Notes: a model not told the origin generated them from the sequence alone. Positions 3,965-54,451 are shown, counted from the first letter of the stretch. The stretch is 64,000 bases of DNA from an uncultured Bacteroidales bacterium (GCA_944325445.1 CALVAG010000001.1:55652-119651), one strand, 5' to 3'. Translations and numbers: made by a program.

Positions 3965-4912
3965 ATGGAGAAGAGCAATGAGGCTTGGCTGGTCATCGTG
4001 AACCCGAAGGCTGGAAGCGGTAGAGGACTCAAGGACTGGCCTATCATCTCCAATCAGATGTACAATAGCAGCTTGCGCTTCACATGCGTCTTTACCGAGC
4101 ATAAATATCATGCCGTAGAACTTACTGTCAAGGCTATAAACGACGGTTTCAGGAATATAGTCGCGGTAGGCGGAGACGGTACGATTCACGAGGTGGTAAA
4201 CGGAATTTTCATTCAGAAAAAGGTCCCGACAACCGATATATCCCTGGCGGTAATACCTACCGGAACGGGAAACGACTGGATCAGGATGTTCGGTATATCA
4301 AAAACATATTCGGAGGCTGTGCGTTCGCTTGTGGAAAAGAGGACGGTTCTGCAGGATGTGGGCAAGGTCAGCTATTACCAGACAAGGGTAAACCATATAC
4401 GTTATATGGCAAATGTTTCCGGTTTGGGATACGATGCTGTCGTAAATCTGATGTACAACAGGATGAAAGATAACGGCCGTTACGGAAAATGGCTCTATAT
4501 CCTGTGTACTATCAGGACATTTTTAGGTTACAGGTCCAAGAAATTCTCGGTTAAGGTGGACGGAAAGGATTTTTATGACGGCATGGTCTTCTCGGGTGCG
4601 GTGGGAATAGGCAAGTATAACGGCGGCGGCATGCAGCAGACTCCGTACGCCCTTTTCGACGACGGGCTAATGGATATGACCATTATAAGGAAAATGTCCA
4701 AATTCAAGATAATAAGAAATTTCGGACTGCTGTTCTCCGGCAGCATATACGATGTGCCGGGTGTCATGCATGTACAGGCAAAAAAAATCGAAATCGGGAC
4801 GGTTCCCGAAAGCAGGATCGAAATAGATGGAGAAGCCGTAGGGAACTCTCCGTTTGTGTTCGAACTGGTCCCCCACGGCATAAGGGTTGTAGTCGGACCT
4901 GATTACGCCTGA
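3965..4912 (+). CDS. Diacylglycerol/lipid kinase family protein (YegS/BmrU type)
   Basis: 315 aa with WLVIVNPKAGSGRG and VAVGGDGTIHEVVNG (DAGK catalytic domain motifs). Confidence 0.85.
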   Translation: MEKSNEAWLVIVNPKAGSGRGLKDWPIISNQMYNSSLRFTCVFTEHKYHAVELTVKAINDGFRNIVAVGGDGTIHEVVNGIFIQKKVPTTDISLAVIPTGTGNDWIRMFGISKTYSEAVRSLVEKRTVLQDVGKVSYYQTRVNHIRYMANVSGLGYDAVVNLMYNRMKDNGRYGKWLYILCTIRTFLGYRSKKFSVKVDGKDFYDGMVFSGAVGIGKYNGGGMQQTPYALFDDGLMDMTIIRKMSKFKIIRNFGLLFSGSIYDVPGVMHVQAKKIEIGTVPESRIEIDGEAVGNSPFVFELVPHGIRVVVGPDYA

Positions 4913-6027
4913 TCTTTAATCACAATCCTCTTTACTCTCTTGGCTACGGAGACGAATACTTCGTATGGAATGGTTCCAAGGATATTTGCAAGTTCGGTAG
5001 CATTGGGATTTTCACCGAAGATAGTTACCGTATCGCCTACCTTGGCATCCACTCCCGTAATGTCGATCATGCACATATCCATGCAGATATTTCCTATAGT
5101 AGGTACAAGCTTCCCGTTAAGCAGGAATTTGGCATTTCCGCGGCCGAGATGGCGGTCGATACCATCGGCGTAACCGAGCGGCAGAGTCGCGGTTTTGGTA
5201 ACGCCTTCGGGGTGCAGTTTCCCGTGCCTGCCATATCCTACAGTTCCGTCTTCGGGCATCAGTTCTTTGATCTGTAATATTTTGCATCTCAATGTGGCGG
5301 CTGGTTTCAAAGCGGAGCCGTTTACGAAACTTATACCGTAGATTCCTATTCCGAGCCTTACCATGTCGAACTGGTATTGTGTGAAACGCTCTATTCCGGC
5401 GGAATTGAGTATATGGTGTATGGGCTTGTAATCCAGTATCGCATCGATTTGTGATGCCATCTTCCGGTATAGTTGTATCTGCCCGAGCGTGAACTCATCG
5501 TGCTGCGGCTCGTCGGCTGCAGCCAAATGCGAGTATATCGATTGTACCCTGATTCTCGGATGGCTCTTGAGAAAATCCAGCAGTGCGGGAAGTTCCTTTT
5601 CCATGAATCCCAACCTGTGCATTCCGGTATCCAGTTTTATATGGACGGGATAGTTTTCTATACCCATCTCCTCCAAAGTGCTGTCGAATATCCGGAGAGA
5701 TTCTATGTTGGGGATTCCGGGTTCAAGGCTGTACTCTATCAAATCCTTATAATTGTCCGTTCCTGCAGTGAGGATTATGACAGGATTTTTTATTCCGCCC
5801 TTTTTCAACTCTATTCCCTCTATCGGATGGGCAACGGCAAAATAGTCGGCGCCGGCCTCTTCCATTATTTTGGCGAATTCCACTCCTCCATGCCCGTACG
5901 AGTTGGCCTTTATGAGAATGAGCAGCTTGGTAGAGGGTTTTAATTTGGATCTGAAATAGTTGTAATTGTGTATGCAGTTGGGATAGCTGATCTCTAACTC
6001 TGCAAATGTGTCGCAGTTTTGTTTCAT
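4903..6027 (-). CDS. alr: Alanine racemase
   Basis: 374 aa with the PLP-lysine motif LIKANSYGHG and the C-terminal ICMDMCMIDIT motif. Stand-alone, not fused to murF. Confidence 0.9.
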   Translation of the reverse strand: MKQNCDTFAELEISYPNCIHNYNYFRSKLKPSTKLLILIKANSYGHGGVEFAKIMEEAGADYFAVAHPIEGIELKKGGIKNPVIILTAGTDNYKDLIEYSLEPGIPNIESLRIFDSTLEEMGIENYPVHIKLDTGMHRLGFMEKELPALLDFLKSHPRIRVQSIYSHLAAADEPQHDEFTLGQIQLYRKMASQIDAILDYKPIHHILNSAGIERFTQYQFDMVRLGIGIYGISFVNGSALKPAATLRCKILQIKELMPEDGTVGYGRHGKLHPEGVTKTATLPLGYADGIDRHLGRGNAKFLLNGKLVPTIGNICMDMCMIDITGVDAKVGDTVTIFGENPNATELANILGTIPYEVFVSVAKRVKRIVIKDQA

Positions 6028-46701: not shown

Positions 46702-47628
46702 ATGCGTGATAATCAGCATACTCTAAAGAAAAAATATATATTTTCCGGAAAAGGCCTCCATACGGGCAAAAGCGTGAGAATGACATTGGAGCCTGCCCCT
46801 GCCGGTTTCGGAATAAAATTCAAACGTGTGGATTTGGGTGATGAGGCGGTAATAGATGCCTCGGTAGATTATGTTACCACTACCTCGAGGGGAACTACTT
46901 TGGAGAAAGGAGATGTCAAGATTTCAACTCTGGAACATTTGATGGCCTCTCTTTACGGGCTTAAAGTTGATAATGCCCTTATATGTATAGATTCCCAGGA
47001 GGTGCCCATTCTGGACGGCAGCGCACTCCCATATGTAAGTGAAATTACCAGAGACGGACTGGCCGAACAGGATGCAGGGAGAATCTATTTTACTCCCGCT
47101 TCAAAGATTTGCTACAGGGATGAGCATTCCGGGTCCGAACTGGTAGTGATGCCGGATGATGATTTCAGTATAGACCTGATGATAGATTTTAATTCCAGAG
47201 TGCTCGGAAATCAATATGCAAGATTGACTCCTTCCACCGAATTCGCATCTGAAATAGCTCCATGCAGGACGTTCGTCTTTTTCCATGAGTTGGAGCCCCT
47301 TTTCAAGAATAACCTGATAAAGGGCGGCGATTTGGATAATGCGATAGTGATAGTCGAGCATCCGGTGGCTCAACAGGAGCTGGACAGGCTGGCGACCCTT
47401 TTCAATGCGCAGAGTCTCGAGAGAGCGCCGGAGGGTTATTTGAATCATCTTGAATTGCGTTTTTCGAATGAGTGTGCCCGCCATAAGCTGCTGGATATAA
47501 TGGGAGATTTCTCGCTTATCGGCATGCCCCTTAAAGCCAAGGTAATAGGGTATAAGACCGGGCATAAGATCAATACCAGTGTAGCAAGAATGATAAGAGA
47601 AGCGATAAGAAAAAGTAATAACAATTAA
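46702..47628 (+). CDS. lpxC: UDP-3-O-acyl-N-acetylglucosamine deacetylase (stand-alone)
   Basis: 308 aa with GKGLHTGKSVRMTLEPA, TLEHLMASL, FFHELE and HKLLD. Ends at TAA 47626-47628. Confidence 0.93.
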   Translation: MRDNQHTLKKKYIFSGKGLHTGKSVRMTLEPAPAGFGIKFKRVDLGDEAVIDASVDYVTTTSRGTTLEKGDVKISTLEHLMASLYGLKVDNALICIDSQEVPILDGSALPYVSEITRDGLAEQDAGRIYFTPASKICYRDEHSGSELVVMPDDDFSIDLMIDFNSRVLGNQYARLTPSTEFASEIAPCRTFVFFHELEPLFKNNLIKGGDLDNAIVIVEHPVAQQELDRLATLFNAQSLERAPEGYLNHLELRFSNECARHKLLDIMGDFSLIGMPLKAKVIGYKTGHKINTSVARMIREAIRKSNNN

Positions 47629-47639
47629 AAAAAAGAGCT

Positions 47640-48122
47640 ATGACATTAGAGGATATACCCCATTTCGATCCGAACAAGGCGCCTGTTGTGGATATTAACG
47701 GCATAAAGGAACTTTTACCCCACCGTCCGCCATTTTTGATGGTAGACAGAATAGTGGAGATGGGGGATGATTATGTAGTCGGAATAAAGAATATCGGTAT
47801 AAACGAAGGATTCTTTATAGGCCATTTCCCCGATGAACCTGTCATGCCGGGAGTCCTTATTATCGAGTCGATGGCACAGACAGGAGGAATATTGTGCTTG
47901 CGCCAGGTGGATGAGCCTAAAAAATATTCTACATATTTTGCGAAGATAGACAATACCAAATTCAAGAGGAAAGTGGTGCCGGGGGATACGCTGGTTCTGA
48001 AGTTGATATTGACACAGCCTGTAAGGCACTCCATGGTAAGCATGCACGGTCAGGCGTATGTAGGCGACACGCTTGTGTGCGAAAGCGATATGATAGCCCA
48101 GATTATAAAGAATAAGGAGTAA
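47640..48122 (+). CDS. fabZ: 3-hydroxyacyl-ACP dehydratase (stand-alone)
   Basis: 160 aa with LPHRPPFLMVDRI and GHFPDEPVMPGVLIIESMAQ. Confidence 0.95.
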   Translation: MTLEDIPHFDPNKAPVVDINGIKELLPHRPPFLMVDRIVEMGDDYVVGIKNIGINEGFFIGHFPDEPVMPGVLIIESMAQTGGILCLRQVDEPKKYSTYFAKIDNTKFKRKVVPGDTLVLKLILTQPVRHSMVSMHGQAYVGDTLVCESDMIAQIIKNKE

Positions 48123-48127
48123 GTAAA

Positions 48128-48928
48128 ATGGAGAATAACTCTTTCATACATCCAAACGCCAAGATCGGTGCCAACGTGCAAATCGGCCCTTTTTGCTATA
48201 TAGCAGAGAATGTAGAGATTGGCGATGGCTGCCAGATAGGCCCGCACGCCACTATTTTCGATTATGTGAAAATGGGGAAGAATTGCAAAGTGTTTCCGGG
48301 CGCCGTAATCGGAGCTGTCCCCCAGGATATGAAGTTCCATGGAGAGATAACATATGTGGAGATAGGGGATAACGTTACGATAAGGGAGTGTGCAACGATA
48401 AACAGGGGCACCGAAGCGAGCGGAAAAGGCATTACCAAAATAGGGAACAATACGTTGGTTATGTCCTATGTACATGTGGCGCACGATTGCGTTGTGGGGA
48501 ATAATTGCATATTGGTAAGTTTTGTCGGGCTGGCCGGTGAAACGGACGTGGATGATTATGCAATCATAGGCGGAAGCTCGGCCGCACACCAATTCTCGAA
48601 GATAGGGAAACATGCCATGCTTTCCGGCGGTTCTATGGTCGGGAAGGATGTGCCTCCGTATGCATTGGCAGGAAAACGTCCTTTGTCGTATGTGGGAATC
48701 AATATAGTAGGTTTGAGAAGACGAGGCTTTTCCGTTGAACAGATAGAGAGGATAAGAGATATATACCGGGTAATATACGACAGCGATTTGAATGTTTCGG
48801 ACGCATGCAGAAAGGTGGAGGCAGAGTTCGAGGAGAGTGAGGAAAAGAGGACTATTCTCGATTTTATAGCTTCGTCCAAACGCGGTATCATAAAACGGAA
48901 TCCTACCGTCATTGCAGATGAAGATTGA
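48128..48928 (+). CDS. lpxA: Acyl-ACP--UDP-N-acetylglucosamine O-acyltransferase
   Basis: 266 aa with hexapeptide repeats from the N-terminus and a C-terminal helical domain. Follows fabZ by 5 nt. Confidence 0.95.
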   Translation: MENNSFIHPNAKIGANVQIGPFCYIAENVEIGDGCQIGPHATIFDYVKMGKNCKVFPGAVIGAVPQDMKFHGEITYVEIGDNVTIRECATINRGTEASGKGITKIGNNTLVMSYVHVAHDCVVGNNCILVSFVGLAGETDVDDYAIIGGSSAAHQFSKIGKHAMLSGGSMVGKDVPPYALAGKRPLSYVGINIVGLRRRGFSVEQIERIRDIYRVIYDSDLNVSDACRKVEAEFEESEEKRTILDFIASSKRGIIKRNPTVIADED

Positions 48929-49571
48929 TACGGTATTGCTCTCTACCGCCTATTTCCCGCCGATAGAGTATTTTGCGGCAATTGCAAATGCAGGTGCCGT
49001 GTTGCTTGAAAGGTGCGAAACATTCCAGAAACAATCCTATAGAACCCGTTGCAACATATATGGTGCCAACGGGTTGCTTTCTTTGATAGTTCCTGTAAAG
49101 CGGGACCCTACCCATAAAACAGGAATAGAGAGCGTTGAGATAGATTACAAGACTCCTTGGATTTTGCAGCATAAAAGAGCGATGGAGGCGGCATATATGA
49201 CCACTCCCTTTTTTGAATATTACATGGATGATATCTATGCGCTGCTTGACAGAAAGGAGAGTTCCCTCTTTTCGTTGAATCTCTCTATAATAGAACTCTT
49301 TTCCAATCTTGCAGGAATAACTTGCAACATTTCGCTTACGGAAGAGTATTATAAGGGCGAACGGCTGAAGGATATGGGGATAACGGATTTGAGGGAGCGG
49401 ATACATCCTAAATATAAAGGTATGTCGCTGCTGCAGGAGCTGAAAATAGAAAAGCCTTACTATCAGGTTTTCTCCGACAAGCAAGGCTTTATACCGAATT
49501 TGTCCATGTTGGATCTGCTCTGTAATGAAGGGCCCAATGCCATCTCCTATTTAAAAGCGTATTCCGACTGA
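48912..49571 (+). CDS. WbqC-family protein
   Basis: 219 aa with LLSTAYFPPIEYF, FQKQSYRTRC and PYYQVF. The start may be the Met at 48918. Confidence 0.75.
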   Translation: MQMKIDTVLLSTAYFPPIEYFAAIANAGAVLLERCETFQKQSYRTRCNIYGANGLLSLIVPVKRDPTHKTGIESVEIDYKTPWILQHKRAMEAAYMTTPFFEYYMDDIYALLDRKESSLFSLNLSIIELFSNLAGITCNISLTEEYYKGERLKDMGITDLRERIHPKYKGMSLLQELKIEKPYYQVFSDKQGFIPNLSMLDLLCNEGPNAISYLKAYSD

Positions 49572-51116
49572 TACAAGCAATTTCCAATTCATATATCTGT
49601 TTGTCCCGACAGGTGCAGCTTCAATGCCGTCGCTATATATTATATCATCGTATAGCGAGAAGTTTTCGCTGCTCTTTTTCAGTCTCTGCTGATATGTGGC
49701 GTCGATGAACAGGCCGCTCTCTCCGACGTATCCTATACCTACAGATCCGATTTGCGTCTTGAGATCGTCGTATCTGTATCCTTCGTTATAGTATTGGTAG
49801 CCTGCCCTGAGTGCAAATTGGGGCGTAAGGTGCAATTCCGCACCGGCCCTGAAAATGTCGGCTGTTGCAAAGTCATTGCTTATGGCCATGTTGTCTTCGG
49901 AGAAATAGCCCGGATAGTCGTAATCGGTAAGTTTCATTTTTGAGTAGTTTACACTCTCGTAATCTACGCTGACAGCGGCAAAATGCCCTATCGTATATGC
50001 CACTCCGACATTCCATCTGAACGGGGTATTCAGTCTGTAGTCATATTGTCCCAAGGGTGAAAGCAGATCCTGTGAATATCCGTCGTTGAAGCTGGATGTC
50101 ACTCTCTCTTCCCACTCTTCCGTAAGGTAGAGCCATGTAGGGGTGGAGATGCTGGCACCGATTCTCAGCCCCTTGAAAGGCAGATATATTATGCCTGCTT
50201 TGAGATTTACACCGGTTCCAGATGTCTTTTGTCTGTAATGACGTGTAAATGATTGGAATCCAGAATCGAAATTACGGGAATCGACAGCGCTCTCGGAATA
50301 GGATTCGTTATAGTTGTACCATACGTTTACAATGCCGAGGTTTACACCGAAATAGAATTTGTTGGAGATGTTTCCTCCGAAATTGAGTACAGCCTCGGAG
50401 ATATTTCCTGTCTGCTCGCGTACATAGTATTGATTGACAGGTCCTCCCATACTTATATTGTATCCGTTGAGATTCTCTGTGGCCGCATAGTAATCATATC
50501 CTGAATCCGGCAGAGTATCCAGAAGGGAGGTGTTCCATGCCAAAATGGATTGCCATGATGCGTTTGTATTGAAAAACGGGTCCGAAGTGGGGTTCATATC
50601 CAAATTGGTAGCATGCAGTCCGTTCAATCCCTGTGCGATGCTCTGCAGGTAGCTGCTTCCGGCAGATGTGCCTTGCGCGCTCATCCTGTCGGTGAAATTA
50701 TTGGTCTTATTGAAAACCAGAGACAGATTCCAGCTTACAAGACCTCTGCTTTGTCTTGTATTGAATGTAGATACGAATCCGAAGTTGGGGACTCCGAACC
50801 TTGTCTTGCCGGTACTGGTTCTGGTGCCAAGGTAATCTGTCCGGTTATCTGCTACTGTTATTGAAGGAGTGAAAATGAACTCGTTGTATGTATAGACTCC
50901 CGATGCTGCCGGATTTATCGATATGGCTCCCATATCTCCTCCGAGAGCGACCATGGCATTACCCATTGCCACGCTTCTGGCTGTCCCTTCATTGAACTGT
51001 TGGGAGTATCTGTATGCATCCCACATGTTCTGACCGTAAACAGGTGCGGCTGCAGAACCCGCCAGGAAGGCAAGCATGACAGCCATGACTGTTTTCATGC
51101 GTCTGTTTTGTCTCAT
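49551..51116 (-). CDS. FadL/PorV-like outer-membrane beta-barrel protein
   Basis: 521 aa with signal peptide AFLAGSAAAPVYGQ and the N-terminal hatch-type motif GTARSVAMGNAMVALGGD. It has Gly/Tyr/Asn-rich alternating strands and a terminal aromatic (VSVGIRF). The start may be the Met at 51098. Confidence 0.7.
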   Translation of the reverse strand: MRQNRRMKTVMAVMLAFLAGSAAAPVYGQNMWDAYRYSQQFNEGTARSVAMGNAMVALGGDMGAISINPAASGVYTYNEFIFTPSITVADNRTDYLGTRTSTGKTRFGVPNFGFVSTFNTRQSRGLVSWNLSLVFNKTNNFTDRMSAQGTSAGSSYLQSIAQGLNGLHATNLDMNPTSDPFFNTNASWQSILAWNTSLLDTLPDSGYDYYAATENLNGYNISMGGPVNQYYVREQTGNISEAVLNFGGNISNKFYFGVNLGIVNVWYNYNESYSESAVDSRNFDSGFQSFTRHYRQKTSGTGVNLKAGIIYLPFKGLRIGASISTPTWLYLTEEWEERVTSSFNDGYSQDLLSPLGQYDYRLNTPFRWNVGVAYTIGHFAAVSVDYESVNYSKMKLTDYDYPGYFSEDNMAISNDFATADIFRAGAELHLTPQFALRAGYQYYNEGYRYDDLKTQIGSVGIGYVGESGLFIDATYQQRLKKSSENFSLYDDIIYSDGIEAAPVGTNRYMNWKLLVSVGIRF

Positions 51117-51149
51117 ATCTTTTTCTTTTTTGCAATTACATAATTATTA

Positions 51150-52142
51150 TTATCTCCGGTATGAAGAGCCGCCTGAACGGGATGCTCCGCCGGAATATCC
51201 GCTTCCGGAACTTCTTCCGCTTGAGAAGCTGCCGCTGCTGCTGCGTGAAACGCTGTACGATGAGTTGTAGCTGTTCTCACTGTTTCTGCTTCTGCTGTAA
51301 GAGGTACTTCTGCGCTGACTCTGGGTCCTGCCGCTATTGTAATAATTCTGGCTCTGAGTTCCTGAAGAACTGTTGTAATTGGTCGTCACATGAGCTCTTC
51401 TGTATGTGCTTCCGCTTTTCGTTCCGCTATTGGAATTCAGATTGTAGTTCCCGTAACCGTTGTTTGTGGCGGGATAGTTCCTTCTGTAGGAAGAGCCGTT
51501 GTTCCGCGAACCGTATATCGTATTGTTGTATGATGGCGATGAATCTCTTCTTCCGTAGTAGATATCCCTTGCAGGATAGTGGTGGTGCGGCCAATATCCG
51601 TGTCCGTGCCACCATGGATCAGACCACCATCCGTAATAGTGGTAGTGATACCATGGAGTGGGCCAGTACCAGTCCCAATACCATGACCATGACGGGCTGC
51701 CGTACCAGTGCCAGTATGGATCCCCGAACCAGTACGAGGCATAATAACCTCCCCAATACGGGTTGTACCAGCCTGTTCCCCAATACCATGCAGGACGGTG
51801 CCAATAATTGTCGTACCATAAGTCATCCAAATCTATATTGTACACATAGACAGGAGAGTCGAATTTTCTCAATCTCGATTCGTAGCTCTCACCGTCTGTC
51901 AGGTAGTATGTATTGTCTGTATTTCCGTACTCATTGATGTTGATGACAGAGGCGTTCGTTTCGTTTTGCAACTGTGCCAGCCTTTCGTTTTCCCTTGCCT
52001 GATAGAGGGCATCTTTCTCCTGAGGCGTAACATATATGCCGTTGGTGAATCTGCCGGAAGTTTGTTGCGACACAAAGAGTGAACTGCACCCCGAAAAGAG
52101 AAAAATCGCTGGAACCAATATAAATAAAGTTCTGTTTTTCAT
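51150..52142 (-). CDS. Lipoprotein with an extreme Trp/Tyr/His-rich central block and a Ser/Asn/Arg/Gly/Tyr-rich C-terminal tail; function unknown
   Basis: 330 aa ORF with lipobox IFLFSGC (Cys19). A canonical SD, GGGAGGTG, ends 4 nt upstream of the ATG. Same strand as the barrel gene and 33 nt upstream of it. See findings for composition. Confidence 0.6.
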   Translation of the reverse strand: MKNRTLFILVPAIFLFSGCSSLFVSQQTSGRFTNGIYVTPQEKDALYQARENERLAQLQNETNASVININEYGNTDNTYYLTDGESYESRLRKFDSPVYVYNIDLDDLWYDNYWHRPAWYWGTGWYNPYWGGYYASYWFGDPYWHWYGSPSWSWYWDWYWPTPWYHYHYYGWWSDPWWHGHGYWPHHHYPARDIYYGRRDSSPSYNNTIYGSRNNGSSYRRNYPATNNGYGNYNLNSNSGTKSGSTYRRAHVTTNYNSSSGTQSQNYYNSGRTQSQRRSTSYSRSRNSENSYNSSYSVSRSSSGSFSSGRSSGSGYSGGASRSGGSSYRR

Positions 52143-52146
52143 TTTT

Positions 52147-52154
52147 CACCTCCC
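52147..52154 (-). promoter_or_regulatory. Canonical Shine-Dalgarno GGGAGGTG for the Trp/Tyr-rich lipoprotein gene
   Basis: The plus strand reads cacctccc. On the minus strand this is GGGAGGTG, followed by AAAA and then ATG (52142). Confidence 0.6.
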
Positions 52155-52171
52155 ATTTTTAATTTATTTAT

Positions 52172-52179
52172 TATTTTTG
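52172..52179 (+). promoter_or_regulatory. -7 box TATTTTTG for proS
   Basis: Exact match, 71 nt upstream of ATG 52250. Confidence 0.45.
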
Positions 52180-52190
52180 CCATTCGAAAA

Positions 52191-52198
52191 CAAAAGTA
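52191..52198 (-). promoter_or_regulatory. -7 box TACTTTTG for the Trp/Tyr-rich lipoprotein / FadL-like barrel unit
   Basis: Exact match on the minus strand, 49 nt upstream of ATG 52142. Confidence 0.5.
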
Positions 52199-53749: not shown

Positions 53750-54451
53750 ATGGGACTGGATCAGCAGATATTAAAGACATTGAATGAAAAGGCCACGGTA
53801 AAGGCTTCGATTTTCGAACGCTGTCTCGATTTGTTCAATCAGCTCAAGGATGTTCTCAGTGAATTGAGCAACGATTTCAACGAACTTCTGGAGACATCGG
53901 AAGGCAATACCAACAAAAGGGTCAGATTGGAATATAGGGATAAGGGCAAATTCGAGGCGGAGCTTAAATTTGCAGATGATGTCCTTGTATTCAGCATGCA
54001 TACGGATATATTCCAGTTCGACAGGGACCATGCGATATGGAAGAATCCTTATGCAAAGGAGAATAAACTCAATACATATTGCGGTGTCGTAAGCGTGTAT
54101 AATTTTCTGTCCGACTCATTCAAATATAACAGGAATGATGATTTGGGATATCTGGTGGCGAGAATGTTTATAAATCGCGAAAATTACTTTTTCATAGAGG
54201 GTAAACGTCAAAAAAGGCATCAGACCTCCGCATTCGGAAAATATAAGATTACCAAGGAGGAACTTATAGCCTTTGTGCAGTCCGCCATGCTCTATACGCT
54301 GGAGTTCGATTTGCTTGTACCTCCTTACGATTTGGTAAAAGTGGTAACCGTAGATCAGATCAACACGAAAATTGAAAATTCAAAAATGAAAACTGGCAAA
54401 CGGATGGGTTATAAGTATAATTCAGACGATGTGCTTGAAGAGGGTGAATAG
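53750..54451 (+). CDS. Hypothetical cytoplasmic protein, no family recognised
   Basis: 233 aa ORF with ordinary composition and no signal peptide. Tightly packed: 21 nt after proS, and the next gene starts at the base after its stop. Confidence 0.55.
   Translation: MGLDQQILKTLNEKATVKASIFERCLDLFNQLKDVLSELSNDFNELLETSEGNTNKRVRLEYRDKGKFEAELKFADDVLVFSMHTDIFQFDRDHAIWKNPYAKENKLNTYCGVVSVYNFLSDSFKYNRNDDLGYLVARMFINRENYFFIEGKRQKRHQTSAFGKYKITKEELIAFVQSAMLYTLEFDLLVPPYDLVKVVTVDQINTKIENSKMKTGKRMGYKYNSDDVLEEGE

Follow-up and report, generated by a model that had tools for sequence, protein, structure and literature searches.

In the genome of an uncultured Bacteroidales bacterium, of which a stretch of 64,000 nt was analysed (GCA_944325445.1 CALVAG010000001.1:55652-119651; hereafter the window), a lipoprotein gene with a Trp/Tyr-rich, low-complexity core lies next to a gene for a FadL-like barrel, which raises the question of what such a protein might have to do with an outer-membrane barrel. 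Both genes are on the minus strand; the 330-aa lipoprotein, here called the partner, is encoded by the open reading frame at 51150..52142 and the 521-aa barrel by that at 49551..51116, with a spacer of 33 nt (51117..51149) in between. Upstream are a Bacteroides-type -7 promoter box, TACTTTTG (52191..52198, minus strand), which fits the consensus TAnnTTTG, and a Shine-Dalgarno-like GGGAGG (52149..52154, minus strand) 6 nt ahead of the partner's ATG. The initial annotation had read this arrangement as a two-gene operon with promoter and Shine-Dalgarno site and without a terminator in the spacer; all its coordinates hold, and no terminator-like site is found on the minus strand of the spacer. In 56 of 77 related loci a -7 box precedes the start of the partner by no more than 120 nt, mostly by 45-65 nt, as compared with a background of only 6% of random 120-nt windows; its presence upstream of the partner is beyond chance.

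The partner gene is located directly upstream of the barrel gene in every Bacteroidales locus with enough DNA (78/78), the median spacer across the family being 20.5 nt, and dN/dS ratios from unsaturated pairs (0.06-0.16 for the partner, 0.045-0.08 for the barrel) show both genes to be under strong purifying selection; the initial annotation would have been refuted by a lipoprotein frame not conserved even in close relatives, and the opposite was found. Part of this adjacency is owed to common descent, as most of the 80 loci have the whole neighbourhood in common, which in the window is a housekeeping region with lpxD, lpxC, fabZ, lpxA and proS. That the two genes are mere co-inherited neighbours without a functional link is nevertheless very improbable: the pair is still found at barrel identities of 26-32% and in unrelated gene contexts, and is retained in distant relatives with other neighbours, namely the loci L082 (beside ilv genes), L087, L088 and, in Bacteroides fragilis, L092; the lpx and proS genes are gone in B. 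fragilis and L082, and the pair is kept there. In addition, the spacers of around 20 nt and the single upstream promoter box speak against mere neighbours, as does the region that varies between B. fragilis strains, which takes in the barrel gene together with the 3' portion of the gene upstream, so that the two vary together (PMC4999547). The two genes form a real outer-membrane module that is widely conserved among gut Bacteroidales, and they are best explained as encoding an obligate outer-membrane pair.

The barrel, for which 725 homologues and 524 genome loci were found, carries a signal peptide ending in VYG/QN, its mature form beginning with Gln. The database entry P0084 is 100% identical to it and has 515 aa, six residues fewer than the reading frame in the window, a length that would fit a start at Met7. 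Its AF2 model (pLDDT 89.9) was matched by Foldseek to FadL, TodX, TbuX and BamG (E 1e-17 to 1e-15 for FadL, TodX and BamG), by which it is confidently predicted to be a FadL-fold outer-membrane barrel, in agreement with the FadL/PorV-type barrel with a hatch proposed at the outset. The N-terminal hatch (aa 29-78; 50883..51032, minus strand) has 19 invariant columns and contains GTARSVAMGNA, then NPA; N68, P69 and A70 do not vary among 36 barrel sequences, and NPA is the hatch motif of FadL, as the PDB entries among the Foldseek matches listed include N33A, P34A and delta-NPA mutants of FadL. Between strands 3 and 4 of the AF2 secondary structure lies a conserved acidic insert (aa 152-226; 50439..50663, minus strand), the 75 residues of which include not a single Lys or Arg and carry a net charge of -6 (family median -7, range -12 to -3); P180, W188, L192, W194, N195, D200, L202, E214 and N215 are invariant. 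By analogy with FadL topology and with B1R of B. fragilis, for which an extracellular domain is described (PMC12853789), this insert would be extracellular.

No Pfam, NCBIfam or PDB entry matches the partner, which bears out the earlier impression of a lipoprotein unlike any recognised family; there are 83 homologues, and the partner profile matches 1040 clusters at 50% identity. With a mean pLDDT of 51.7 and structure confined to two helices in its AF2 model, the partner is predicted to be essentially disordered, and it is best explained as a series of short, conserved motifs split by low-complexity segments (all coordinates that follow are on the minus strand). A signal peptide with the lipobox LFSG/C (aa 1-19; 52086..52142; Cys19 invariant) is followed, at a distance of 13-17 residues past the Cys that is constant across the family, by the linear motif FTNGIYVTP (52023..52049; family pattern [FY]x[ND]xIYYxP; Y37 invariant, I36 nearly so), which in variants with a type-I signal peptide stands almost directly after the cleavage site. 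The sole long confident helix (aa 40-69; 51936..52025; AF2 pLDDT of the block 86-91 over most of its length) precedes the motif ESYESRLRKFDSPVYVYNI (aa 85-103; 51834..51890), in which E85, S86, R90, L91, K93, F94, P97, Y99 and N102 are kept in at least 90% of the partner sequences and the B. fragilis counterpart of which is DDYEYAERIIRFRNPRF. The core (aa 105-192; 51567..51830) consists of 88 residues with 22.7% Trp and 20.5% Tyr (43% Trp+Tyr), 10% each of His, Pro and Gly and a net charge of -4; it is 83% identical to that of the closest relatives, and across the family its composition is conserved while its position is not. After the motif RDIYYGRR (aa 192-199; 51546..51569; Y196, G197 and R199 invariant, Y195 in at least 90%) there follows a tail rich in Ser, Asn, Arg, Tyr and Gly (aa 200-330; 51153..51545), in which YRR occurs at residues 219, 247 and 328; computed from residue 193 onward, the tail has 29% Ser, 13% Asn and 12% Arg and a net charge of +15 (family median +19). 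It ends in SSYRR (51153..51167; R329 and R330 invariant), the hallmark of the family: RR stands at the C-terminus of around 187 of 208 family representatives, and 128 of 305 partners end in S[ST]YRR(R).

These properties bear on several of the first suggestions. An amyloid is unlikely, as Pro, Gly and Asp abound in the core and beta structure is absent from the AF2 model; a classical surface lipoprotein finds no support, as the acidic lipoprotein export signal (at least two acidic residues among the six after the Cys) occurs in none of 272 family lipoproteins, 267 of which have no acidic residue in these positions, five have one and none has two; the partner of the window has none there. Neither does this partner have a C-terminal domain for type IX secretion. 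In about 6 of 208 family members, as in the B. fragilis partner, the signal peptide is of the ordinary kind and the lipid anchor is missing; in one relative a FISUMP domain stands at the C-terminus. An analogy with SusC/SusD was likewise not sustained, there being no Plug, TonB_dep_Rec or SusD Pfam match on either protein and the predicted fold being of FadL type; such a pair was rejected, since TonB dependence is not a property of the barrel and the partner is without a folded SusD-like domain.

The module had initially been put forward as something undescribed, which holds for the partner, whose family has no curated annotation, and not for the barrel, whose family contains the BSAP-1 receptor OmpS/B1R of B. 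fragilis (PMC4999547; PMC12853789). OmpS/OmpR, that is, B1R or BF9343_1563 / BF638R_1645, is the receptor of the MACPF toxin BSAP-1 (PMC4999547; PMC12853789). BF9343_1563 was located via the published cloning primer; the family profile of the window barrel aligns its positions 1-511 with residues 1-556 of this protein (E 2e-59, Z = 1e6), and BLASTP with the window barrel gives 30% identity (E 2e-36), which shows that both belong to one family. The gene upstream of BF9343_1563 matches the partner profile (E 9e-21 at full length; 3e-15 for its N-terminal 170 residues alone), and of 30 B. fragilis contigs 29 have a partner-family gene upstream; judged by these matches, the two B. fragilis genes belong to the partner and the barrel family. 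The window partner's own narrow profile misses the B. fragilis partner, and the homology of the two rests on intermediate sequences.

In B. fragilis, a mutant of the barrel grows normally in rich medium and colonises the mouse gut poorly (PMC4999547). The Arg-rich, disordered C-terminal peptide of BSAP-1 binds a negatively charged extracellular groove of the barrel (PMC12853789), for which Y369 and the terminal arginines of the peptide matter (bioRxiv 10.64898/2026.08.05.742979); a role in this binding is published for Y369, R370, R371, R366 and R358. The barrel alone makes other Bacteroides species sensitive to BSAP-1 (PMC4999547; PMC12853789), which means that the groove is accessible and that folding of the barrel does not require its own partner. 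OmpS and OmpR, alleles of about 70% identity, differ in BSAP-1 recognition (bioRxiv 10.64898/2026.08.05.742979); as recognition is strain-specific even inside B. fragilis, nothing suggests the window barrel as a toxin target.

It is quite possible, if somewhat short of probable, that the barrel serves as a dedicated dock for the partner, which would be secreted and, in this genome, lipid-anchored. The cationic Tyr/Arg tail, chiefly its C-terminal S-(S/T)-Y-R-R, would bind the acidic insert in the same way as the ...RSTYRRP end of BSAP-1 binds in the acidic groove of the B. fragilis barrel, and BSAP-1 would be a mimic of the barrel's own partner; both the binding of the tail to the barrel and the side of the membrane on which it would occur we infer. 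The charges are complementary (an insert of -6 without Lys or Arg versus a tail of +15), and there is precedent in other FadL-like barrels of Bacteroidota that hold protein partners, BamG with BamH, and PorV (PMC12578637; PMC12611786). BSAP-1's C-terminal domain (residues 335-372) is, like the partner tails, disordered, devoid of acidic residues and rich in Arg, Ser, Asn, Gly and Tyr, and its end (STYRRP) is the terminal motif of the partner family; it differs from a partner in being 38 residues that end a pore-forming toxin, and similarity between the toxin peptide and the partner gene is absent at the DNA level. The peptide aligns in order with the tail of the B. fragilis partner (GAVRSNS / TSSY / RRVIG / RRSTYTRP), which with lenient gap costs is the best of 305 partners at a score reached by 0 of 3000 shuffles and with standard gap costs has a p of about 0.01; the top rank is obtained only under gap costs picked, from two schemes, after seeing the data, and both sequences are of low complexity. 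The toxin-like block RRSTYTRP is internal in the B. fragilis partner, the end of which is SRGRR and not STYRR. Also counting against docking, the partner has neither the acidic export signal nor a type IX secretion domain, and no known route brings its tail to the cell surface. Of the earlier ideas, that of a partner for which the barrel provides export or anchorage comes closest to docking; the initial interpretation as a whole is partly supported.

Without an export signal, the lipid anchor would be on the periplasmic side, and this suits a rather unlikely alternative in which the barrel works as a canonical FadL-type channel that takes up a hydrophobic compound (for example fatty acids, bile acids or quinones), the role that is assumed in the BSAP-1 papers; the aromatic-rich partner would then be a periplasmic cargo acceptor anchored in the inner leaflet, and it would be by coincidence, through its composition, that it resembles the toxin peptide. 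The FadL fold with its invariant NPA hatch motif agrees with such a channel, a segment with 43% Trp+Tyr could bind hydrophobic or aromatic ligands, and normal growth of the barrel mutant in rich medium with poor colonisation of mice fits a role in nutrition or stress. FadL, however, needs no partner, its cargo leaving sideways into the membrane, and the partner here has no folded binding pocket; uptake also leaves the invariant C-terminal RR, the tail charge of +15 to +19 and the insert without basic residues unexplained. Furthermore, those FadL-like barrels of Bacteroidota whose role is described in the papers cited here, BamG and PorV, bind proteins (PMC12578637).

The disorder of the partner throughout its length would suit another explanation, to be judged unlikely and slightly more so than uptake, according to which the barrel serves for export or threading, comparable to two-partner secretion or to RcsF threaded through OmpA, and the partner passes through or alongside it to end as a sticky, self-associating Tyr/Arg surface coat. 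Tyr/Arg-rich tails such as this one fit the sticker-and-spacer grammar of self-associating disordered proteins; the anchor-free members imply that something besides lipid must hold them, and the relative with the FISUMP domain also agrees with export. We know of no FadL-family barrel that exports proteins, though, and the lumen is plugged by the highly conserved hatch. A polypeptide does pass through the lateral opening of the FadL-like barrel BamG (PMC12611786). Export overlaps with docking, the main difference being the claim of translocation.

The known systems with which the pair may be compared also differ from it. The best structural matches are E. coli FadL and Pseudomonas TodX/TbuX (PF03349, channels for hydrophobic compounds; TM-score 0.56-0.64, target-normalised), which have the N-terminal hatch with NPA in common with the window barrel and differ from it by an identity of about 12%, by some 100 residues fewer without the acidic insert and, in the case of FadL, by the lack of a dedicated partner gene. 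The Toluene_X model PF03349 does not match the window barrel at E up to 1 and matches 4 of 36 barrel relatives (best E 1.8e-8).

BamG is structurally as similar as FadL (Foldseek; chains 9hiv_F, 9hjm_F and 9n2d_B), and as a FadL-fold barrel that holds a lipoprotein, with BamG2-BamH2 as a gene pair in one operon (PMC12578637; PMC12611786), it invites the idea that the pair belongs, as an accessory, to a known Bacteroidota machine, being either BamG/BamH-like in barrel assembly or, like PorV/PorQ, an adaptor in type IX secretion. The housekeeping location would suit this idea, which is nonetheless improbable, as the lpx/proS neighbours are lost in B. fragilis and L082 with the pair kept, and type IX secretion genes are absent within 8 kb. 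The NCBIfam BamG model NF053685 misses the window barrel and, of 36 relatives, matches only 1; BamH, a surface lipoprotein, is folded into a crescent and has an acidic export signal, whereas the partner is predicted to be disordered and has no such signal. NPA is at mature positions 40-42 in the window barrel versus 33-35 in FadL (the latter taken from PDB mutant names), an N-terminus about 7 residues longer; in BamG the extension beyond FadL is of around 10-12 residues. PorV/PorQ is the nearest curated sequence family, with weak matches in 33 of 36 family barrels, and PorV is likewise a FadL-like barrel that binds a protein partner (PMC12578637); the window barrel reaches 27.6 bits with the model NF033709 against a cutoff of 90, distant relatives reach at most 44.5 bits, and PorV is not among the 50 Foldseek matches listed.

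In OmpS/B1R a FadL fold comes with a hatch and an extracellular domain (PMC12853789), as would be the case in the window barrel, yet OmpS/B1R belongs to a distant subfamily, has 556 aa and carries a longer insert. The partners differ as well, that of B. fragilis having an ordinary signal peptide and the end SRGRR, that of the window a lipobox and the end SSYRR; and the B. fragilis pair adjoins a 286-aa open reading frame with methyltransferase-like motifs, whereas the pair of the window adjoins lpx genes and proS.

The lipoprotein gene, here called the partner (52142..51150, minus strand; 330 aa, N-terminus MKNRTLFILVPAIFLFSGC), is separated by 33 nt from the barrel gene that follows it on the same strand (51116..49551; 521 aa, with a signal peptide and the motif GTARSVAMGNA). 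A -7 box, TACTTTTG (52198..52191, minus strand), fits the Bacteroides consensus TAnnTTTG, a Shine-Dalgarno-like GGGAGG is found upstream of the partner's ATG with a gap of 6 nt, and no terminator-like site was found on the minus strand in the region scanned; the two-gene module proposed in the initial annotation is thus borne out. A sigma-70 promoter scan of the region (9 sites versus 6.1 expected) is uninformative for Bacteroidota. A WbqC-like gene (48912/48918..49571, plus strand) runs towards the barrel gene, and its 3' end shares 21 nt (49551-49571) with the last codons and the stop of the latter, which leaves no space for an intrinsic terminator of either gene. A database protein 100% identical to the window barrel (P0084) has 515 aa, six residues fewer, which is compatible with a start at Met7 (51099-51116); in that case the spacer could measure 51 nt instead of 33. 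The low-complexity partner gene also contains spurious long ORFs of 258, 129, 66 and 62 aa in other frames or on the other strand (for example 51161-51937, plus strand, and 51437-51826, minus strand), so that an ORF-length filter by itself would mis-annotate this stretch.

As had been supposed when the lipoprotein was said to be of no recognised family, neither the partner by itself nor its family as a whole finds a match in Pfam, NCBIfam or the PDB sequence set. The family is real and conserved all the same: a word-indexed search returned 83 homologues, and a profile of 25 members matches 1040 clusters at 50% identity with E ≤1e-3 (299 with E ≤1e-10). The partner's dN/dS of 0.06-0.16 in unsaturated pairs is near that of the barrel (0.045-0.08) and indicates that the low-complexity ORF is truly coding; the concern that it might not be conserved even in close relatives is thereby removed. 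The alignments consist of short conserved motifs, between which are stretches that keep composition, not positions: at the N-terminus the lipobox Cys is followed 13-17 residues on by [FY]x[ND]xIYYxP; further motifs are ESYExRLRKFDSPxYxINI, ahead of the core, and RDIYYG[KR]R, between core and tail; in the window residues 105-192 form the Trp/Tyr/His/Pro/Gly core (22.7% W, 20.5% Y); and the Ser/Asn/Arg/Tyr/Gly tail has a net charge of +15 in the window (family median +19). The C-terminus is RR in about 187 of 208 family representatives and S[ST]YRR(R) in 128 of 305 members; in the window the ending is SSYRR, and STYRR is found at twelve of 78 loci. AlphaFold2 (84 sequences; mean pLDDT 51.7) models a helix at 40-69 and a short helix at 87-94 as the sole structured elements apart from the signal peptide, and the protein is predicted to be almost wholly disordered; a strongly selected envelope protein of this kind, with a core of 43% Trp+Tyr, is unusual. 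In one 566-aa family member (P0300) a C-terminal FISUMP domain (Fib_succ_major, TIGR02145; 76.7 bits, cutoff 41.65) takes the place of RR at the end, either through an assembly artefact or through a natural fusion that hints at the destination of the tail.

The FadL/PorV-like nature ascribed to the barrel holds at the level of structure. The AlphaFold2 model (36 sequences; pLDDT 89.9) matches, by Foldseek against the PDB, E. coli FadL, TodX, TbuX and a P. aeruginosa FadL homologue as well as the BamG chains of three Bacteroidota BAM structures, all with E of 1e-17 to 1e-15 at about 12% identity; unrelated porins form the next tier. By sequence the barrel is under the threshold of every curated family in Pfam and NCBIfam: it reaches 27.6 bits with PorV/PorQ NF033709 (cutoff 90 bits; 33 of 36 family members match weakly) and 19.5 bits with Pfam UPF0164 (cutoff 21.4 bits; 11 of 36 match), and it does not match Pfam Toluene_X or NCBIfam BamG, which are matched by four and one of the 36, respectively; against solved structures its sequence gives weak matches to TbuX and Opa, nothing stronger. 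Conservation is highest in two parts: the hatch or N-terminal plug, where 19 columns are invariant (N68-P69-A70 among them), and an insert of 75 residues that separates strand 3 from strand 4, contains no Lys or Arg and has a net charge of -6 (family median -7). The hatch segment NEGTARSVAMGNAMVALGGDMGAISINPAASG (50883-51032, barrel aa 29-78) shows weak matches to amidase-signature enzymes (PDB amidases, E 0.013-0.04; NCBIfam PRK12470, E 0.009); both have Gly/Ala-rich motifs, and the likeness is probably due to chance.

The structural matches bear on two rival explanations. The barrel might be a canonical hydrophobic-uptake channel, with the partner as periplasmic acceptor; the FadL, TodX and TbuX matches are those of such a channel, and the acidic insert and cationic tail are features it leaves unexplained. 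Alternatively, the pair might be an accessory of BAM or of type IX secretion; to its credit are the BamG chains and the weak PorV/PorQ scores, and on the other side stand the missing match to the BamG family and the absence of a type IX secretion C-terminal domain from the partner. As to the membrane side, acidic residues after the Cys are a criterion applied to Bacteroidota surface lipoproteins (PMC12578637); two such residues in the six positions after the Cys occur in none of 272 family lipoproteins, and 267 of the 272 have none at all, so that by this rule the lipid anchor would face the periplasm, where the uptake model places its acceptor. The lipobox is missing in about six of 208 partners, in which DDIYYxP comes almost directly after the signal-peptide cleavage site.

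Barrel relatives were found in at least 524 loci of species-level genomes in a scan of one genome per species. The labels of the best 80 of the 524 are Bacteroidales or unclassified (among them Candidatus Egerieousia, Egerieisoma, Coprenecus, Rikenellaceae MAGs and Bacteroidales bacterium CF) except for two bins, labelled Acutalibacteraceae (L042) and Eggerthellaceae (L044), whose module-carrying contigs are most likely binning contamination. A Trp/Tyr-rich partner-type protein lies directly upstream of the barrel in all 78 loci with enough upstream DNA, an affirmative answer to the co-occurrence check proposed for the pair; these proteins end in RR in all loci except one (L079), most carry a lipobox, and the median spacer to the barrel is 20.5 nt. 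At the exceptional locus the upstream protein (4435-5601) ends in ...VEERVNR, 400 nt away from the barrel, and may be a frameshifted or truncated partner. Of 77 loci, 56 have a -7 box no more than 120 nt ahead of the partner's start (mostly at 45-65 nt), versus 6% of background windows.

Most loci share a neighbourhood of nusA, rimP, lpxD, lpxC, fabZ, lpxA, a WbqC-like gene, the barrel-partner pair, proS, a DUF3078 gene and tilS, and there the adjacency of the pair could be inherited synteny; distant pairs keep the arrangement in other contexts, namely L081 (barrel 32% identical), L082 (26% identical, adjoined by ilv genes), L087, and L088 and L090, whose partners have a type-I signal peptide. 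The proS gene lies within a few kb of the pair in the window, L081, L083, L087 and L088, even where the lpx side is replaced, and this linkage is lost in B. fragilis (L092); in L081, L083 and L087 the DUF3078 gene directly adjoins proS. In the window a 233-aa ORF without a Pfam match (53750-54451) lies between the two, and a homologue is present within 6 kb in 65 of the 80 loci. While lpxC and fabZ are fused in many Bacteroidota, they are separate adjacent ORFs in the window (46702-47628, 308 aa; 47640-48122, 160 aa), and L083 has a stand-alone LpxC of 324 aa too.

The 5' end of BF9343_1563, taken from a published cloning primer, led to 30 B. fragilis contigs from metagenomes. The barrel encoded there (556 aa, L092:3682-5352) is the receptor of the MACPF toxin BSAP-1; it matches the window-family profile over its entire length (E 2e-59), and its identity to the window barrel is 30%. 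The window barrel adds a distant member to a family of which one representative has been studied and is known solely as a toxin receptor. This receptor has 14 strands, a FadL-like fold, a hatch and an extracellular domain whose negatively charged groove is bound by the 38-residue disordered Arg-rich C-terminal domain of BSAP-1 (PMC12853789), with contributions from Y369, R358, R366, R370 and R371 (bioRxiv 10.64898/2026.08.05.742979). Each B. fragilis strain has one allele, OmpS or OmpR; the strain-variable region takes in the genes for toxin and barrel together with the 3' portion of the upstream gene, BF638R_1644 / HMPREF1080_01555, and deletion of the barrel leaves growth in rich medium normal and impairs colonisation of gnotobiotic mice (Roelofs et al., PMC4999547). 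The upstream gene was tested there solely for conferring BSAP-1 sensitivity, and neither it nor mimicry is mentioned in PMC12853789 or bioRxiv 10.64898/2026.08.05.742979.

The protein encoded directly upstream of the B. fragilis barrel (444 aa, starting MKKIVLL) has the partner architecture: a signal peptide, NDDLYFVP, DDYEYAERIIRFRNPRF, a W/Y/G core with HHHH, and an S/T/R-rich tail of charge +27 ending in GRR. It is the top match (E 3e-15) of a profile restricted to the first 170 residues of six signal-peptide-type partners, the remaining matches of which are all lipoprotein-type partners, and a full-length profile of distant partners finds it with E 9e-21. The narrow profile of the window family and BLASTP (including versus P0320) missed it, and detection needed profiles of intermediate variants that carry a type-I signal peptide, which makes the homology a transitive one. 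Of the 30 contigs, 29 have a partner gene upstream of the barrel, with hardly any variation in its tail.

The BSAP-1 peptide has the composition of a partner tail, contains no acidic residue and ends in STYRR+P, that is, in the C-terminal motif of the partner family. Residues 263-335 of the B. fragilis partner can be aligned with it block by block in the same order (GAVRSNS / TSSY / RRVIG / RRSTYTRP). Two gap-cost schemes were tried: with standard costs the score is 59, which about 1% of composition-preserving shuffles reach and which is not the best among 305 partners; with lenient costs, picked after seeing the data, it is 84.3, the best of the 305 (decoy mean 54.1, maximum 71.5) and reached by none of 3000 shuffles. 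We take the alignment as a lead. A recent duplication of the partner gene as source of the toxin peptide is rejected, as the DNA of the two shows no similarity (343 of 1000 codon shuffles score as high); the likeness, if real, would accordingly reflect mimicry or an ancient origin, not a recent copy.

Of the readings considered, a dedicated complex of the two proteins is the best supported: with its acidic insert the barrel would bind the partner's cationic Tyr/Arg tail, the contact, membrane side and role being putative. This reading draws on the conservation of the pair across contexts, the complementary charges of the two proteins, and the published binding of a like peptide by a homologous barrel via Tyr and terminal Arg. 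Its main difficulty is topology: the groove is extracellular, and no known route would bring the partner to the cell surface. One way out is that the barrel itself gives the disordered chain passage, through or beside it; the other is that tail and groove do not come together at all and the likeness is one of composition. For the former there is a partial precedent in BamG, whose lateral opening is passed by its own tail and whose strands hold the N-terminus of BamH wedged between them (PMC12611786, PMC12578637); the same precedent, along with the predicted disorder of the partner, would suit a rival in which the barrel is itself an export or threading device.

Going beyond the complex, one may propose that the acidic extracellular domain exists to hold the cationic tail of the barrel's own operon partner, that the partner surfaces via the FadL-type barrel and that BSAP-1 kills by mimicry; taken together we consider this rather unlikely, and we know of no protein that reaches the cell surface through or alongside a FadL-type barrel. 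If true, it would give the BSAP-1 receptor a physiological partner and explain both the strain-level specificity of a 38-residue disordered peptide and why, in B. fragilis, the upstream gene varies at its 3' end together with the barrel. Gut colonisation and toxin-mediated strain exclusion both involve the B. fragilis barrel, and a conserved partner with a tail like the toxin's binding peptide makes its normal role experimentally approachable, in a family of at least 524 species-level genomes (one scan) whose partners fall into about 1000 sequence clusters.

The literature searched describes, to our knowledge, neither the partner family nor the conserved two-gene module nor the resemblance of toxin peptide and tail, and nothing on the barrel-partner pair was found in it; the MAFF genes BT2268/2269 were rejected as a precedent, being a SusC/D pair, and the 'FadL' match connected with them is the name of an author. 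Set beside the Bacteroidota FadL-like barrels that have a cognate protein partner, the module of the window is a system of the same kind.
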